DNA of 27,519 nucleotides from Candidatus Micrarchaeota archaeon. Lineage in GTDB: Archaea; Micrarchaeota; Micrarchaeia; Norongarragalinales; Norongarragalinaceae. The position numbers and the translations under genes are program-made. Position 1 is the first letter of the stretch, and every line of letters begins with the position of its first letter. The notes under the pieces were generated by a model. The model saw only the letters and a program-made list of their open reading frames with translations. It was not told the origin of the DNA and did no database searches. The stretch covers positions 1 to 27,519 of the forward strand of contig JAZDIF010000074.1 of assembly GCA_043805205.1 (NCBI GenBank), given 5' to 3'. Below are positions 3,468 through 27,519 of this stretch, in pieces.

Positions 3468-4061
3468 ATGGTTTTGAAGGCAAGCGGAAAGTTCGAACTT
3501 GCCCTGGTTTTCACGGCAGGATTCGCTTCAGCGCTGCTCCTGTCTTTTGCAGCCTATCCTGAAGTCAATGCCTTTAAGGAAAACGGGGTTTGCGCCTTGG
3601 GCGTGACAACCGTCTTCTCCCCGGATTCGCAAGAGCAATTCGTTTCCATAATCTCTTCAGCGGAAAAAACCCTCGACGTGATGCTATACCAGTTTTCCAA
3701 CCCGGAAATGAAAGACGCGCTGGCTTTTGCAGTCAGGCGCGGGGTTGCAGTGAGAATAATCCTGGAGCCGAGGGTGGATTCGAATTACGCTACGGCGGAG
3801 TTCCTATCGCAAAACGGAGTTTCCGTAAGATGGGCTTCCAAGGAATATACGAACACGCACTCGAAAACAGCGGTTATCGACGGGAGGAAAGTGATTGTGG
3901 GAAGCACGAATTGGAGCAAGCAGGCGATGCGCTCCAACCGCGAGAGCACTGTTTTAATCGAGGGGGAGGCTATTGCTAAAGAGTTCTCCAGGGTTTTCGA
4001 GGAAGACTGGATTAAGGCGAAGGAGTACGTTTCGGGTGTGGAGAATGCAACCGCAGGGTGA
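3468..4061 (+). CDS. Phospholipase D superfamily protein (single HKD motif, Nuc-like) with N-terminal membrane anchor
   Basis: HSKTAVID (HxKxxxxD) followed by VGSTNWS and NRE, plus an N-terminal hydrophobic segment. Confidence 0.88.
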   Translation: MVLKASGKFELALVFTAGFASALLLSFAAYPEVNAFKENGVCALGVTTVFSPDSQEQFVSIISSAEKTLDVMLYQFSNPEMKDALAFAVRRGVAVRIILEPRVDSNYATAEFLSQNGVSVRWASKEYTNTHSKTAVIDGRKVIVGSTNWSKQAMRSNRESTVLIEGEAIAKEFSRVFEEDWIKAKEYVSGVENATAG

Positions 4062-8673: not shown

Positions 8674-8704
8674 CTTTTGCACTTGCTAGGGGGTTGTTGG
8701 GTTT

Positions 8705-10591
8705 TTGTTTGACGTGGAGCCGATGGTCAAGACGCGCGTTTTGTGCGCGAACAACGACTTGGATTCCGTAGTGGAAGCTTTGTACGAATTCGGCGCCATC
8801 CACGTCACCCGCTCTAAAGCTTTTTCCCCCGGCCAACCGCTTTCCAAGCTGGAGAGGATTTCCAGAATGCTCGTCAAACTCAGGGCGGTGGAAAGCACTC
8901 TCGGGCTGGCGGGCAAAGCCCTTCCTATCTTCCTATCTCGCGGGCACTCGCCGTTTCTCGACGAGCTGGAGAAAGAATTCAACTCCCTGCCTGTCGGGCA
9001 GGTGGACTCCATAGCAAAAGAAAAGCAGTCTGTTGAAGCGGAGTTGAACGAACTCAAGTCCCGCAGGAAGGAACTGGCCGTTTTCAAGAGCCTGGACGTG
9101 GATTTGAATAAATTGTCTTCAAAAACCTCTCTGTTGGAATTCGCGGTTTTCGAAATCACCGGAAGCAGGGATAGTGTGTTGGCGAAAGCGAGGGAGTACG
9201 GCGAAGCGATGGTATTGCAAGTTCCGGGGCAAAACGCCAGGCTGCTGGCGGCGTTGGAAAAACGCCATTCGGAAAAAGCGCGTTCCGCCTTGTCCCAGTT
9301 CGCGAGGGAATCAACCCTGCCTTTTGCCAAGGAAAGCTTCTCGCGCGAGCACGCGAGCGTGGAAAAAAGAATCTTTCAACTGACCGCACGGCTTTCTGAA
9401 TTGCAGAAACAAGCCGACTCTCTGGCTTCGGCCTACGGCTCGAAAATCGTTTTCCTCAGGAAAGCTTTGGAAGTCGAGTTCAAGAAAGCAGAGCTCCCGT
9501 CGAAATTCGGGCAGGCTTCAATGGCTAGTTCTGCAGAAGGCTGGGTTCCGGCAAAACGCTTTTCAAAACTGGAGTGGGTTTTGAAAGAACGGCTTGGCGA
9601 AAAAATCGTCGTAGAGAAAGTCGATTCGGGCGAAACGCCGCCGAGCAAGCTGAACAACGTTTTTGCTGTAAAACCATTCGAATTCATGGTGCAGTTTTTC
9701 TCGCTCCCGCGCTACAACGAGATAGACCCTACGTTCCTGACTGCGTTGACATTCCCGCTGTTTTTCGGGATGATTCTCGGCGACATCGGATACGGGATTT
9801 TGCTGCTGGCATTGGGCTTGTTCCTGGCTAGAAAATCGAAGGCTGGTTTTGTCTCCAGCTTGGGCGGAATGCTGGTTTTGAGCGCGTTCTCCACGATTAT
9901 TTTCGGGGTGGTTTACGCCGAGTTCTTCGGGCTGGAGGAAGTGTTCGGCTTTCACTTGACTCCCTTGCTATCGAGGATTCACGAGCACGGAATCGGACAA
10001 TTAATCGCCTTGTCGATTTTAGTGGGTTTTCTCCACATTGCATTGGGTTTGGTGCTGGGAATCTGGCAGGGAGTGAGGGAAAAGCACTACAACCATTCTT
10101 TCGCGAAGGCAGGGTGGATGCTTGTAGAAATAGGTTTCGTCGCGTTCATCGTCAACAACCTAGATGTCGTGTTAGTGGAGTTCCTCAAGCCTTTGAAGAT
10201 TCTTTCCCCTCCCTTGGACCTGGCGGTTTTCGCACTGGGAATCCTGGTTTTGGTGAAGACCGAAGGCGTGATACAGTTGTTCGAGATTCCTTCGCTGATA
10301 GGAAACGTAATGTCTTACTTGAGGTTGATGGCTCTCGGGCTTTCCGGAGTGGCGTTGGCAGGAATAATAAACACGATTCCCGTTGACTTGAATTCACTCT
10401 CGTCTTTCAACCCGCTGGCTTGGGTGGGAGTCATTCTGGCGTTAGTGTTCCTGGTGCTCGGGCACATTTTGGTTTGCGCTTTGGGATTGTTGGAAGCGGG
10501 TATACAGTCTTTAAGGTTGCATTACGTAGAGTTTTACTCCAAGTTTTACAAGGGCGGCGGGATTCCATTCACTCCCTTGAGGGAAGAATAG
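8705..10591 (+). CDS. atpI: A-type ATP synthase subunit I (a)
   Basis: Soluble N-terminal half, PRYNEIDPT, FFGMILGDIGYG, SYLRLMALGL (essential Arg) and LRLHYVEFYSKFY. Confidence 0.95.
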   Translation: MFDVEPMVKTRVLCANNDLDSVVEALYEFGAIHVTRSKAFSPGQPLSKLERISRMLVKLRAVESTLGLAGKALPIFLSRGHSPFLDELEKEFNSLPVGQVDSIAKEKQSVEAELNELKSRRKELAVFKSLDVDLNKLSSKTSLLEFAVFEITGSRDSVLAKAREYGEAMVLQVPGQNARLLAALEKRHSEKARSALSQFARESTLPFAKESFSREHASVEKRIFQLTARLSELQKQADSLASAYGSKIVFLRKALEVEFKKAELPSKFGQASMASSAEGWVPAKRFSKLEWVLKERLGEKIVVEKVDSGETPPSKLNNVFAVKPFEFMVQFFSLPRYNEIDPTFLTALTFPLFFGMILGDIGYGILLLALGLFLARKSKAGFVSSLGGMLVLSAFSTIIFGVVYAEFFGLEEVFGFHLTPLLSRIHEHGIGQLIALSILVGFLHIALGLVLGIWQGVREKHYNHSFAKAGWMLVEIGFVAFIVNNLDVVLVEFLKPLKILSPPLDLAVFALGILVLVKTEGVIQLFEIPSLIGNVMSYLRLMALGLSGVALAGIINTIPVDLNSLSSFNPLAWVGVILALVFLVLGHILVCALGLLEAGIQSLRLHYVEFYSKFYKGGGIPFTPLREE

Positions 10592-25133: not shown

Positions 25134-25685
25134 TTAGAACGATACTTTCACGTTCTTCCTCTCGCTCTCGGCAGTTTGGAAGAACTCCCTTTTCTTGAAG
25201 CCGAACGGTCCTGCGAGAGTGTTGTTGGGGAAGACTTGAATGCCGTTGTTGTAGTCGAGAACAGAGTCGTTGTAAAACTGGCGGGCGTAAGCGATTTTTC
25301 CTTCAATGTCGCTCAACTCTTCCTGCAGTTCCTTGAAGTTGGCGCTCGCCTCGAGCTTCGGGTATGCTTCCGCAACGGCGAAAATGCTCTTGAGCGCGTC
25401 GGTGAGCATGTTGTTCGCCTTGGCCTTCTGCCCGATAGTCTGGGCGCGCAGCATGGCGCTTCTCGCTTCGGTAACTTCCTTGAACACTCCCCGCTCGTGC
25501 TTGGCATATCCTTTCACCGTTTCCACGAGGTTGGGAATCAAGTCGTTTCTTTTCTTTAATTGAACATCAATTTGCGACCAGGAGTTGTCCACAGTGTTCC
25601 TCGAGCGGATGAGCCCGTTGTACAACAATACGAGGAACAGCAGTACGATGAACACTAGCCCGCCGATAATCCATTCTATAGTCAT
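25134..25685 (-). CDS. lemA: LemA family protein
   Basis: N-terminal TM, YNGL, WSQIDVQLKKRNDLIPNLVETVKGYAKHE, AEAYPKL and ARQFYNDSV. The usual lemA-htpX pairing is present. Confidence 0.96.
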   Translation of the reverse strand: MTIEWIIGGLVFIVLLFLVLLYNGLIRSRNTVDNSWSQIDVQLKKRNDLIPNLVETVKGYAKHERGVFKEVTEARSAMLRAQTIGQKAKANNMLTDALKSIFAVAEAYPKLEASANFKELQEELSDIEGKIAYARQFYNDSVLDYNNGIQVFPNNTLAGPFGFKKREFFQTAESERKNVKVSF

Positions 25686-25756
25686 TCGACACCACCTTTT
25701 TGTTAAAACGATTAGCGAAACTTCCTTTAAAACGCTTTATTTCGAGCGGCTTAAAC

Positions 25757-25764
25757 TTAATAAA
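25757..25764 (+). promoter_or_regulatory. TATA-like box (TTAATAAA) for the C/D sRNA
   Basis: About 25-32 nt upstream of box C. Confidence 0.45.
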
Positions 25765-25785
25765 CTTCTCAAGAGCAAATGATTG

Positions 25786-25841
25786 TTAGTGATGATACCG
25801 TCCCAGTCTGACTTTGTGATGACCGAGGTAGCTTCTGATGA
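25786..25841 (+). ncRNA. Box C/D 2'-O-methylation guide sRNA (dual guide; predicted targets 23S rRNA G2251 and U2438, E. coli numbering)
   Basis: Box C GTGATGA 25789-25795, 12-nt guide TACCGTCCCAGT, box D' CTGA 25808-25811, box C' GTGATGA 25816-25822, 12-nt guide CCGAGGTAGCTT, box D CTGA 25835-25838. Both guides are complementary to conserved 23S domain V sequences recalled from memory. Confidence 0.93.
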
Positions 25842-25895
25842 AAGAAAACCCTGAAATAGAAGGGGTTTAAAAAGACACTATTCCTAGCCTTTTTG

Positions 25896-27203
25896 ATGGG
25901 AAAGGCTGAAGAGGAAGAAGGAATTCAGGGAAAGAGAAGCGAGTACGCTAATGAACGGTTTATTGATGAGAGGGTTTATGCTTCTCTCTGCGAAGAGTAC
26001 CCTGAATTGCTTTCTAAAAATGGAGAGGCTAGTTTTCGTACGAAGAACTTGGCTAGAGTGTTGGCTGACAAGCGACTGTCTAGAAGCAATAGGGAAAGGC
26101 TATTGGAGTTTAACAGGGAGAAGGAGATTGAAGGCTTGAGCTTAGGCTCTAGGTACAACTACTTGTACAACCTGAAGAGCTTGGCTGTTAGCGTCAGGAA
26201 GAACTTCGGGGAAATGACTGAAGAGGATTTGAAGAAGTACCTAGCGAAGAAGAGCTATTTGAAAAGCCCAGAGTTTAAGATTTGCATTAGGCGGTTTTTC
26301 CAGTGGGCTTATGGCTTGAAGGACGGAGAGTACCCTAAGGTTATTTCTTGGTTGAGATTGTCTTTTGACAAGAAGAGGAAGCTTCCTGAAGAGATGCTGA
26401 CGCAAGAGGACGTTTTAGCTTTGGTTAAAGCCTGCGATAACGAGAGGGACAAGGCTATTGTAATGGTTTTGTACGACACTGGAATGAGAGCTGGAGAGCT
26501 TGTGAGTTTGGAAGTGAAACACTTTCAGCCGGACAAGTACGGCGGTTGTCTGCTTATTCCAGACGGGAAGACTGGAAGCCGGAAGGTTAGGCTGACGCTC
26601 TCCCTTCCAACATTAAGAAACTGGTTGAACAACCACCCTAACAAAGACAAGCCTAACAGTGCTTTGTTTCCGCTTCAGAGGGATTACTATTCGCATATTA
26701 AGAACGTAAATTACTTGGGCTATTTACTGAACCAGTTGAAGAGAAGAAGCGGTTTGAAGAAGAGGCTTTACTCTCACTTGTTCAGGCACTCTAGAGCCAC
26801 TGAAATGGCTTCAGAGTTTTCAGAGCAAGAGCTGAAAATGTTTTTCGGCTGGACTGCTGGAAGCAATATGCCCGCTAATTACATTCATATGAGCTTCAAC
26901 AACTTGGACAGGAAGATTTTGGCTAAGGAAGGGCTTTTGGAAGAGAAGGACAAGGAGAAGAAGCTCTTGGAAATGAAGGTTTGCTCTCGTTGTGGAACTA
27001 GGAATTCTGCTGACGCTGTGCTTTGCTCTAGCTGTAGCTTCAATTTGGAAAGCGAAAAGCTGATGCTAGGCGTACTGAAGGAATTGGTTTCCCAGAACAC
27101 TCCTGAAGCGACTGCTGTCGGAAAGGCTATTTTGAAGCAAATGGGTGGCGTGAATTTTGAAAAAGACGGGAAGAAGTACCGGCTTGAGCTTGTTTCAGAC
27201 TAA
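25896..27203 (+). CDS. Tyrosine recombinase/integrase with C-terminal zinc ribbon
   Basis: Catalytic set YDTGMRAGEL (R), GKTG (K), HLFRHSRAT (HxxR), FGW (W), NYIH (Y); CSRC-x10-CSSC Zn ribbon. TTTAAAAA TATA-like box at 25866-25873 suggests a leaderless ATG 25896. Confidence 0.95.
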   Translation: MGKAEEEEGIQGKRSEYANERFIDERVYASLCEEYPELLSKNGEASFRTKNLARVLADKRLSRSNRERLLEFNREKEIEGLSLGSRYNYLYNLKSLAVSVRKNFGEMTEEDLKKYLAKKSYLKSPEFKICIRRFFQWAYGLKDGEYPKVISWLRLSFDKKRKLPEEMLTQEDVLALVKACDNERDKAIVMVLYDTGMRAGELVSLEVKHFQPDKYGGCLLIPDGKTGSRKVRLTLSLPTLRNWLNNHPNKDKPNSALFPLQRDYYSHIKNVNYLGYLLNQLKRRSGLKKRLYSHLFRHSRATEMASEFSEQELKMFFGWTAGSNMPANYIHMSFNNLDRKILAKEGLLEEKDKEKKLLEMKVCSRCGTRNSADAVLCSSCSFNLESEKLMLGVLKELVSQNTPEATAVGKAILKQMGGVNFEKDGKKYRLELVSD

Positions 27204-27519
27204 CTTTTGAAGGGCTTAATGTCTTTTTTAGGCTTCCTTTCGTTTTCCTTCACGTACCGCATAAACCGTTCTTTCATTTTCTCTTCTTCCTGAAGCAGTA
27301 CTGTTCTAAATTGCTTGTCGTGTTCTCCTAAAAGCTCTGCTATCAGAACGCTTTTGCTCGTTTTACTCATTTCTAAGTGTCTTTTGCTGTGTTCTGGGTT
27401 TTTCAGTCGCTTGTATAAGTACGTCATTTGAAGCGGTAAAACCCACTTTCTTCCAGTGCGTTCAAACCACTTGTAAATGATGGATTTCTCTTCTGTTTCT
27501 AACAAATCGGTTAATAGCG
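27200..27519 (-). CDS. Hypothetical protein, 5'-truncated, convergent with the integrase
   Basis: The frame stays open to the window edge upstream of TTG 27505. The stop overlaps the integrase stop, and the composition resembles the integrase. Confidence 0.55.
   Translation of the reverse strand, partial: LLTDLLETEEKSIIYKWFERTGRKWVLPLQMTYLYKRLKNPEHSKRHLEMSKTSKSVLIAELLGEHDKQFRTVLLQEEEKMKERFMRYVKENERKPKKDIKPFKS

Follow-up and report, generated by a model that had tools for sequence, protein, structure and literature searches.

The sRNA and integrase genes at the end of the contig

The window analysed here, 27,519 nucleotides of DNA from a member of the Micrarchaeota, is the whole of contig C74 of assembly G000, a fragmented metagenome assembly of 772 kb in 104 contigs (83% complete), and the contig ends 316 nt past an integrase gene (Table 1). 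The protein product of lemA, to the left of this gene, is 80% identical in two genomes of the same genus, G001 and G004, with synteny to M48/HtpX and pfkB. Between lemA and the integrase lies a dual-guide box C/D sRNA gene, all four boxes of which (C, D', C' and D) fit the archaeal box C/D sRNA consensus without a mismatch. The strict C/D pattern is matched just twice in the 772-kb assembly, one of the two matches being this sRNA, and the adjacency of sRNA and integrase is therefore no common chance event. As the first-pass annotation had stated, the integrase ATG (25896) follows box D by 57 nt on the same strand, and neither a tRNA nor a tRNA 3' fragment is found between lemA and the integrase by ARAGORN, Rfam or BLAST. 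The only tRNA gene in the window is a tRNA-Gly gene at 2425-2496 (ARAGORN, Rfam), and a short-word BLAST comparison of 25701-25960 with the whole assembly returned no tRNA fragment near the junction and no repeat longer than 19 nt.

Table 1. Features around the junction, in window coordinates
Feature	Position	Strand	Remarks
lemA	25134..25685	-	last conserved host protein gene left of the junction; Pfam LemA 1.8e-60
TATA-like box CTTAATAAA of the sRNA gene	25756..25764	+	24 nt 5' of box C; promoter function inferred
Dual-guide box C/D sRNA	25789..25838	+	C, 12-nt guide, D', 5-nt spacer, C', 12-nt guide, D; host gene, proposed bearer of attB/attL
Box C gTGATGA	25789-25795	+	read from sequence
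D' guide TACCGTCCCAGT	25796-25807	+	read from sequence
D' box CTGA	25808-25811	+	read from sequence
C' box TGATGA	25817-25822	+	read from sequence
D guide CCGAGGTAGCTT	25823-25834	+	read from sequence
Box D CTGA	25835-25838	+	read from sequence
Predicted att core GGTAGCTTCTGATG	25827..25840	+	last 12 nt of the sRNA plus TG; extent inferred by analogy with the sister clade
TATA-like box TTTAAAAA	25866..25873	+	22 nt 5' of the integrase ATG; read from sequence; function inferred
Tyrosine integrase, intact, 435 aa	25896..27203	+	SAM-like N-domain, catalytic domain, C-terminal C4 zinc ribbon
Element ORF, 105 aa or more, truncated at the contig end	27200..27519	-	no recognisable family

The integrase is recognised by Pfam (PF00589, 7.6e-21, 75.1 bits against a cut-off of 27.1), with a match to the zinc ribbon too, and by the PHROG integrase family (1.9e-27). 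The catalytic residues R198, K225, H294, R297, W319 and Y329, as well as the four cysteines, are invariant in two alignments (A1, 24 sequences; A2, 8 sequences). Its nearest homologue among 5.8 billion proteins is 44% identical, and a look-up of the exact protein, with both possible starts, returned no record. The later of these starts, a TTG at 26007 that drops a 37-aa N-terminal extension, was rejected because the TATA-to-ATG spacing at 25896 fits that of the sister elements; the layout of box D, about 60 nt with a TATA box, and ATG is common to L036, L039, L042, L173 and L185. The integrase mRNA is probably leaderless. The truncated ORF at the contig end matches no Pfam or PHROG family, and neither the assembly nor any of the loci fetched contains a homologue. 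A separate tyrosine recombinase of 273 aa is encoded on C104 and could be a housekeeping Xer protein.

A shift in composition had been noticed at about this point and is borne out: GC content falls from 0.512 (1-25838) to 0.435 (25839-27519), below all of 1248 windows of 1.68 kb each that cover the genome (0.510 +/- 0.016). The DNA to the right of box D is foreign, and no other stretch of the assembly deviates as far in composition. GC content is low at 25600-25800 too, in ordinary intergenic DNA. The DNA 3' of 27519 is absent, as contig C74 ends there, and the far end of the element, with any attR, lies outside our view. The rest of the element was not found among the binned contigs, and there is no other low-GC contig (the lowest is at 0.481), which indicates that the remainder was not binned.

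Homologues of the integrase occur in 19 of 40 relatives, at 0-4 copies each, many of them at contig ends and none at this locus. A XerA-type dimer resolvase, expected as a single conserved chromosomal copy, is not what this distribution describes. More broadly, the intact reading frame, the full set of catalytic residues and a plausible promoter of its own would be compatible with a domesticated recombinase of the chromosome (Xer-like, or an invertase with a regulatory role) that simply happens to lie beside the sRNA. The gene, however, is absent from this site in every relative searched, its homologues are patchy and multi-copy, its GC content is strongly deviant, the genome has the second tyrosine recombinase on C104, and members of the family lie beside tRNA or sRNA genes, with att repeats; domestication thus retains hardly any plausibility.

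A conserved host gene and a homology break at box D

The D' guide of the sRNA pairs at 12 of 12 positions (one G.U) with ACUGGGGCGGUA of the organism's own 23S rRNA, where the N+5 rule designates the equivalent of E. coli G2251, in the P loop. The D guide pairs with the same rRNA 191 nt downstream, with one G.U and one mismatch, and points at U2438 (E. coli 23S numbering according to rrlH of NC_000913). In its C/D'/C'/D boxes and 12-nt guides, in having two targets about 190 nt apart in one rRNA, and in the position of N+5 on a conserved 2'-O-methylation site, the sRNA resembles the archaeal dual-guide C/D sRNAs of Pyrococcus, Sulfolobus and Pyrobaculum; unlike those families, it comes from the Micrarchaeota, and no Rfam family reaches its gathering score for 25789-25838. 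The genome also encodes the RNP partners fibrillarin (PF01269, C12:2143-2784, 3e-77) and Nop5 (PF01798, C12:3560-4225, 3.6e-47). The sRNA is conserved: it is 86-93% identical in at least 11 relatives, and 14 of the 68 genomes of the order each contain a single exact copy of the 14-mer GAGGTAGCTTCTGA, taken from the D guide and box D, against 0 occurrences of reversed-pattern controls. The copy in G004 differs by one spacer base, and the motif cttaataaa is found equally far upstream of the copy in G001. Judged from its sequence, 25789-25838 is a genuine conserved host box C/D sRNA gene, its expression and the methylation of its targets being inferred; among the RNA runs listed, none contained the locus.

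Comparison with relatives that lack the element, as the first-pass annotation had suggested, shows that lemA, the sRNA and the sRNA promoter are kept in G001 and G004 without an integrase. More generally, the sRNA is followed by unrelated, integrase-free DNA in G001, G004, G016, G029, G030, G036, G040 and G046; no integrase was found beside this sRNA in any of the relatives searched, and no match to the sRNA coincides with a match to the integrase. It is thus not the case that every relative has an integrase fixed beside the sRNA, which would have refuted the proposal. Homology of G000 to G001 and G004 stops at 25838, the last base of box D, where the junction lies. The right-hand host flank could not be located by synteny: the genes 3' of the sRNA differ between G001 and G004, and no clear orthologues of either set were found in G000. 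G036 has an integrase 22 kb away from the sRNA, which was set aside: it is unrelated to the sRNA, and no repeat occurs there.

On the other side of the sRNA, G001 and G004 have a RelA/SpoT-like gene (533 aa) between lemA and the sRNA; G000 lacks it, and the locus has consequently undergone other rearrangements. This change 5' of the sRNA, together with the low GC already seen at 25600-25800, leaves some room for the alternative put forward with the original proposal, in which the guide RNA is cargo of the element and the true junction lies to its left. That alternative is contradicted by the presence of the sRNA, with no adjoining integrase, in 14 or more genomes of the order, by a TATA box and lemA-side neighbourhood like those of G001, and by the single spacer base that separates it from the G004 copy; we regard it as very unlikely.

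Integrases of the sister clade and a second guide RNA

When homologous integrases were surveyed for adjacent C/D boxes, as had been proposed, all 15 of the closest ones (37-44% identical, forming the sister clade) were found directly 3' of a second conserved C/D sRNA, and the regions upstream of integrases are about 44-fold enriched in matches to a relaxed C/D pattern. At least 18 of the 91 homologues surveyed, more distant members of the family, lie 30-330 nt after a same-strand tRNA gene, and additional ones follow intron-bearing tRNAs that ARAGORN missed. In a maximum-likelihood tree, the window integrase is sister (92/92) to the 15 sRNA-associated integrases (100/98), and these, with three unlabelled rows, are split at 100/99 from every tRNA-associated integrase. 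The support for the sister relation is below maximal, and the branch leading to the window integrase is long (1.73).

In the sister clade, the repeated core CGGACGGTCTGATG consists of the last 11 nt of the second sRNA plus 2-4 nt, and direct repeats of it bound 4.8-31 kb of inserted DNA, frequently as tandem arrays. In L038, CGGACGGTCTGATG is present at 3915 and 8688; in L185, a 15-nt repeat is present at 2033 and 9653. G045 (C4) has an attL at 9887 and further core copies at 35946, 37681, 39836 and 41414, all four preceded by CCCTAG and three of them (35946, 37681 and 41414) coming after near-identical right-end sequence. GC within the G045 interval is mostly 0.40-0.48 (one 2-kb window reaches 0.50), against about 0.48-0.54 outside. 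Moreover, variant cores match host-specific variants of the second sRNA. This sRNA is found in 41 of the 68 genomes of the order, with no integrase within 1.5 kb at any of the 30 loci examined in those genomes. No empty site was obtained for the G045 island; the closest relative, G073, has an integrase there and a contig break, and the flank in G044 is rearranged. In this clade, the 3' end of a different C/D sRNA gene is demonstrably the att core, with direct repeats at attL and attR.

The target sRNA in G000 differs from the sRNA for which att repeats were demonstrated. Given the long branch of the window integrase and its identity of only 37-41% to the sister clade, a shared type of target is an extrapolation, and we found no other genome in which an integrase adjoins this particular sRNA. 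It could be argued that the element came to lie beside the sRNA by chance, or that its att site is in the intergenic DNA just 3' of the sRNA gene rather than within it: the attR is unseen, the core cannot be mapped in G000, and both flanks of the sRNA vary among relatives, which suggests a generally unstable locus. Yet an integrase ATG 57 nt after one of only two strict C/D sRNAs in 772 kb is improbable, the break in homology falls exactly at the final base of box D, and the sister-clade core overlaps the last 11 nt of its sRNA. Chance or an intergenic site is accordingly unlikely in our judgement, although of the competing explanations it is the one that deserves most attention.

A guide RNA gene as a proposed attachment site

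The proposal made in the first-pass annotation, that the 3' end of the sRNA is attB/attL, is supported indirectly but along several lines: the conservation of the host gene, the empty sites, the break at box D, the foreign GC content and the att cores of the sister clade. We consider it very probable that the 3' end of the sRNA is the attL of an integrative element, and with the same degree of assurance we take the sRNA gene at 25789-25838 to be the target of a mobile element of which the integrase (25896-27203) is the leftmost gene. The free element would carry an attP that duplicates roughly the final dozen nucleotides of the sRNA, from the D guide through box D and probably on to TG, and in which the right end of the element would be joined to TGAAAGAAAACCC. 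The integrase would recombine this attP with the identical stretch of the chromosomal sRNA gene, leaving the sRNA restored intact at the left junction (attL), as with elements that target tRNA genes. At the right junction (attR), a short partial copy of the sRNA would be expected, ending in GGTAGCTTCTGA and probably then TG.

The exact core in G000, the existence of an attR and the present mobility of the element are inferences. The predicted core has no second copy in the G000 assembly, where the sRNA region has no repeat of 13 nt or more; an anchored search of the assembly for at least 10 nt of the sRNA tail gave only 10-12-mers at chance level. The tail of contig C74 does not overlap other contig ends, its shared 18-mers amounting to one chance match. 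No DNA run was listed, and the single public sequencing run that was listed covered almost none of the region: it yielded one 151-nt contig, identical to part of the integrase, with no joints and no sequence at the junction. When IMG/VR was scanned for the two att cores and with the clade alignment, the DNA matches were at chance level and only two distant integrases (24-26%) emerged. In a metagenome assembly of 104 contigs, with a contig that stops right after the integrase, as several homologous loci do, a chimera of chromosome and free element joined through a short shared sequence can be imagined. We give it minimal credence, and such a join would itself need the sRNA 3' end on the free element (attP), which amounts to the same biological conclusion.

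Archaeal tyrosine integrases usually target tRNA genes and adjoin the att site, and tRNA and tmRNA genes as integration sites are a textbook rule on which tools for mapping genomic islands rest. The proposed guide-RNA landing site is a variant of this tRNA-type integration with a new target. Like the tRNA- and tmRNA-targeting integrases (P4/lambda-like islands in Islander; the archaeal pNOB8-type or "type II"), the integrase here lies directly 3' of a small stable RNA gene and in the same orientation. The proposed att core is likewise the 3' end of the RNA gene, which would be regenerated at attL, and the direct repeats that bound elements and their tandem accretion, also shared, are seen in the sister loci. 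The guide-RNA case differs in its target, a box C/D methylation-guide sRNA gene of some 50 nt instead of a tRNA or tmRNA gene; in its core, which is no longer than about 13-15 nt (D-guide end, box D and 2-4 nt); and in its enzyme family, whose members of about 400 aa come from DPANN and other archaea and carry a C4 zinc ribbon at the C-terminus. The SSV-type integrases ("type I", suicidal; SSV1, Thermococcales, deep-sea archaea; PMC7253208) are also tyrosine integrases of small integrative elements that target an RNA gene. In that type, however, attP lies within the int ORF and the gene is split into Int(N) and Int(C), whereas here the 435-aa ORF is intact; the integrase aligns end to end with its homologues, and the sRNA is kept out of the ORF by an in-frame stop at 25857-25859.

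Our literature search found no report of a C/D guide RNA gene as an integration target. A review of archaeal tyrosine recombinases mentions neither sRNA targets nor DPANN (PMC8371274), a study of Pyrobaculum deals with duplicated sRNAs and MITE-like copies without discussing the integration of elements into sRNA genes by integrases (bioRxiv 10.1101/121921), and a 2026 survey reports no proviruses in 1356 Micrarchaeota genomes (PMC13573593). Somewhat less firmly than we identify the target in G000, we think it probable that a clade of Micrarchaeota integrases has moved from tRNA genes to C/D guide RNA genes, using at least two guide RNAs (one directed at the 23S P loop, the other at the 16S 3' minor domain), with an att core made of box D and the part of the guide that is frozen by complementarity to invariant rRNA, and that the sRNA genes are now hot spots where elements pile up in tandem. 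If this is true, box C/D guide RNA genes would be a new class of attachment site, following the same logic as tRNA genes: the gene is short and essential and stays the same from host to host, here through its base-pairing with invariant rRNA. The short natural att sites (about 14 bp) and the compact integrase would lend themselves to biochemistry. Guide RNA genes would also provide a means of finding integrated elements in DPANN archaea and, conversely, adjacent integrases would reveal C/D sRNA genes that have remained unannotated.

The integrase junction and the P-loop guide sRNA

The tyrosine integrase at the right end of the window lies 3' of a box C/D sRNA with two guides and textbook archaeal architecture, which reads, in order, box C (gTGATGA), guide TACCGTCCCAGT, D' (CTGA), a 5-nt spacer, C' (TGATGA), guide CCGAGGTAGCTT and box D (CTGA). 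The strict form of this pattern is matched only twice in the source assembly (the other candidate has the guides GAAGGAACAACCA and GGTTGATAGCGT). The first-pass annotation had placed the integrase ATG 57 nt after box D, had described a shift in composition at about this point, and had seen no tRNA beside the integrase. All three statements hold: the distance is exact, the GC content changes from 0.512 left of box D to 0.435 right of it, which is lower than in any of the 1248 windows (1.68 kb each) taken across the assembly (mean 0.510, sd 0.016), and neither ARAGORN nor Rfam finds a tRNA near the integrase. Thus, the layout of the sRNA, the adjoining integrase, the drop in GC and the absence of a tRNA together confirm the initial observation. 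The assembly is a metagenome-assembled one (772 kb, 104 contigs, 83% complete, GC 0.509), and its contig C74, the window, ends 316 nt past the integrase stop codon. Tree labels and the relatives of the integrase put the genome in Micrarchaeota. That the junction is an assembly chimera is barely credible to us, and a chimera would still imply an attP, the site on the free element, that matches the sRNA.

Features of the window and of the related loci discussed in the text
Feature	Position	Strand	Remarks
Tyrosine integrase, 435 aa	25896-27203	+	ATG at 25896; Pfam Phage_integrase 7.6e-21; C-terminal zinc ribbon
P-loop sRNA, dual-guide box C/D	25789-25838	+	box D ends at 25838
TATA-like CTTAATAAA			24 nt upstream of sRNA box C
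TATA-like TTTAAAAA			inside the 57 nt between box D and integrase ATG
Predicted att core, ~GGTAGCTTCTGATG	25827-25840
Second strict box C/D candidate, source assembly	C83:1691-1746	-
RelA/SpoT-like gene, 533 aa	L032:8153-9754		same-genus genome G001
RelA/SpoT-like gene, 533 aa	L033:7809-9413		same-genus genome G004
sRNA-B tail repeats CGGACGGTCTGATG	L038:3915-3928, 8688-8701		enclose 4.8 kb
Vsr-type and C5 methyltransferase genes	L038:5718-7071
15-nt repeat	L185: 2033 and 9653
sRNA-B repeat	G045:C4: 9887; 35946, 37681, 39836, 41414	same strand	CCCTAG precedes all four distal copies
Duplicated sRNA-B promoter and box C	L039:5840-5990		copies ~110 nt apart
sRNA-B overlapping a protein gene	L173:7790-7860

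The D' guide pairs at 12 of 12 positions, one of them G.U, with ACUGGGGCGGUA in the organism's own 23S rRNA (contig C42). This motif corresponds to 2247-2257 on E. coli rrlH; the fifth base of the guide, counted upstream from D', therefore faces G2251, the conserved P-loop 2'-O-methylguanosine. The D guide pairs 191 nt downstream of this site, where its target corresponds to U2438 and the duplex has one mismatch and one G.U; contig C12 encodes fibrillarin and Nop5. The rRNA complement comprises two SSU genes and three LSU pieces in 772 kb (C51:2276-4535, C59:2306-3797, C42:43-2977), and the length of the SSU gene on C51 (2260 nt vs a model of 1478 positions) suggests a large insertion or intron, the alternative being more than one strain in the bin.

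At least 11 related genomes have the P-loop sRNA, 86-93% identical. The 14-mer made up of D guide and box D has a single copy per genome in 14 of the 68 genomes of the order; reversed-pattern controls gave zero occurrences. The sRNA is a working host gene, its expression and the methylation of its targets being inferred. Its position beside the integrase could also mean that it is cargo of the element, which we hold to be very doubtful; no sRNA match in the relatives coincides with an integrase match. Two genomes of the same genus contain the sRNA (G001 and G004). In both, lemA, M48/HtpX and pfkB lie in synteny with the window, the sRNA is nearly identical (one spacer base differs in G004), its TATA box is identical in G001, and similarity to the source genome ends at the final base of box D. 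A large surface protein gene follows in G001 and a 219-aa ORF in G004, with no integrase downstream in either; the comparison with empty sites suggested in the first-pass annotation thus finds lemA and the sRNA persisting without the integrase. Both genomes have a RelA/SpoT-like gene between lemA and the sRNA that is absent between 25685 and 25789 of the window and, by tblastn, from the rest of the source assembly. The 5' side of the sRNA therefore has a history of its own, having been remodelled or having lost the gene.

The integrase family and its RNA-gene targets

The catalytic residues of tyrosine recombinases (R198, K225, H294, R297, W319 and Y329) are all invariant in homologue alignments, as are the four cysteines of the zinc ribbon. 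The best match among 5.8 billion proteins is only 44% identical, and the named matches are mostly from Micrarchaeota, Aenigmarchaeota, Nanoarchaeota and other archaeal MAGs, with one labelled Omnitrophica. An integrase fixed beside the sRNA in all relatives would have refuted integration, and this is not the case: none of 40 relatives has a copy at the locus, and the family is patchy (19 of the 40, with 0-4 copies each, often at contig ends). A domesticated recombinase is accordingly a reading to which we give little weight. The source assembly has two further tyrosine recombinases, one of which, a 273-aa frame on contig C104, could be the housekeeping Xer.

The family was surveyed at 80 loci from species genomes, 11 from relatives and 15 from metagenomes. 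At least 18 integrases sit 30-330 nt 3' of a same-strand tRNA gene (Glu, Leu, Asn, His, Thr, Pro or Val). Many loci initially scored as having no such neighbour actually follow intron-bearing tRNAs missed by ARAGORN, which was run in bacterial mode, and the tRNA-associated share hence exceeds the 18 counted. Many integrase-adjacent Micrarchaeota tRNAs have long introns or odd structures (L026, L057, L115, L025, L021, L029, L060). Integrases of the family also occur on contigs binned as Thermodesulfobacteriota, Planctomycetota, Chloroflexia and other bacteria (L074, L076; L067, L069, L077, L098, L103, L107, L109); the protein of L076 is identical to that of a Micrarchaeota locus. Such placements suggest that contigs of mobile elements were mis-binned, cross-domain transfer being less likely.

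The first-pass annotation had also proposed a survey of homologues for adjoining C/D boxes: a second C/D sRNA, sRNA-B, precedes every one of the 15 closest homologues (L036-L042, L173-L177, L179-L181), and its D guide ends in ..GACGGACGG. Within 600 nt 5' of the integrases, matches to a relaxed C/D pattern have a density of 0.079 per kb; the remainder of these loci has 0.0018 per kb. In a careful maximum-likelihood tree of 48 integrases (supports are UFBoot/SH-aLRT), the window's integrase is sister (92/92) to these 15 (100/98). A support of 100/99 separates both, together with three rows without an assigned neighbour, from every one of the 18 tRNA-associated rows. With a length of 1.73, the branch of the window's enzyme is long, so that its position in the tree calls for some caution.

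sRNA-B is a conserved host gene, present in 41 of the 68 genomes of the order, including G001 (L144, G001:C1 near 621949) and G004 (L145), and not found in the source assembly; at the 30 loci inspected, the nearest 1.5 kb contained no integrase. Complementarity is perfect between its D' guide and the 16S rRNA 3' end (AGAUCACCU); its D guide pairs with decoding-centre ACCGCCCGUCA, with one mismatch, an A.C at the N+5 position, presumably E. coli C1402. In L039, a perfect palindromic hairpin (AAGCCTTTTTCTTTTAAGAAAAGAAAAAGGCT) separates the duplicated promoter and box C, an arrangement that a small insertion at the front of the gene may have left behind. In L173, sRNA-B and the 3' end of a protein gene seem to overlap, with box C in the last codons and the stop codon inside the D guide, the integrase still being directly 3'.

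Direct repeats and the probable attachment site

In L038, the sRNA-B tail is repeated on the far side of a segment with the integrase, a Vsr endonuclease and a C5 DNA methyltransferase, and a second element with its own integrase comes next. The cargo resembles a dcm/vsr module, and the other small ORFs of this element matched no family. L185 has a comparable repeat. On contig C4 of G045, three of the four distal copies (35946, 37681, 41414) follow near-identical longer right-end sequence, GC is 0.40-0.48 across most of the interval (0.50 in one 2-kb window) vs ~0.48-0.54 outside, and the expected chance count of an exact 13-mer in the span is ~0.002. Moreover, the repeat tracks the host gene, a variant D guide being accompanied by a variant repeat TGTGCGGTCTGACTA (L174, L175, L177). 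These repeats show that the elements of the sister clade insert at a C/D sRNA gene, into its 3' end, and restore it at attL, the left junction; the elements accumulate in tandem. Tail copies of sRNA-B are often less than 300 nt from contig ends or several per genome (six in G058; also G019, G013, G022, G037), a distribution that fits a recurrent, assembly-breaking integration hot spot.

The window shares with L036, L039, L042, L173 and L185 the order box D, ~60 nt with a TATA box, and a leaderless ATG. The most economical reading is that it shows the attL of an integrated element targeting the P-loop guide sRNA, at which the element would integrate by the mechanism of the sister clade. No repeat of the sRNA region of 13 nt or more occurs anywhere in the source assembly (83% complete), no contig of it overlaps the C74 tail, and IMG/VR holds nothing related. 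The right junction being missing, we regard the P-loop sRNA as the probable, not the established, att site; chance or intergenic insertion remains possible but unlikely.

Full-text literature searches found no paper in which C/D box sRNAs are treated together with integrases or sites of integration. Neither sRNA targets nor DPANN feature in a review of archaeal tyrosine recombinases (PMC8371274), a study of Pyrobaculum C/D sRNAs covers only duplications and MITE-like copies (10.1101/121921), and a 2026 survey reports zero proviruses in 1356 Micrarchaeota genomes (PMC13573593). Site-specific integration of the tRNA type is a known mode; what differs here is a new class of RNA-gene target.
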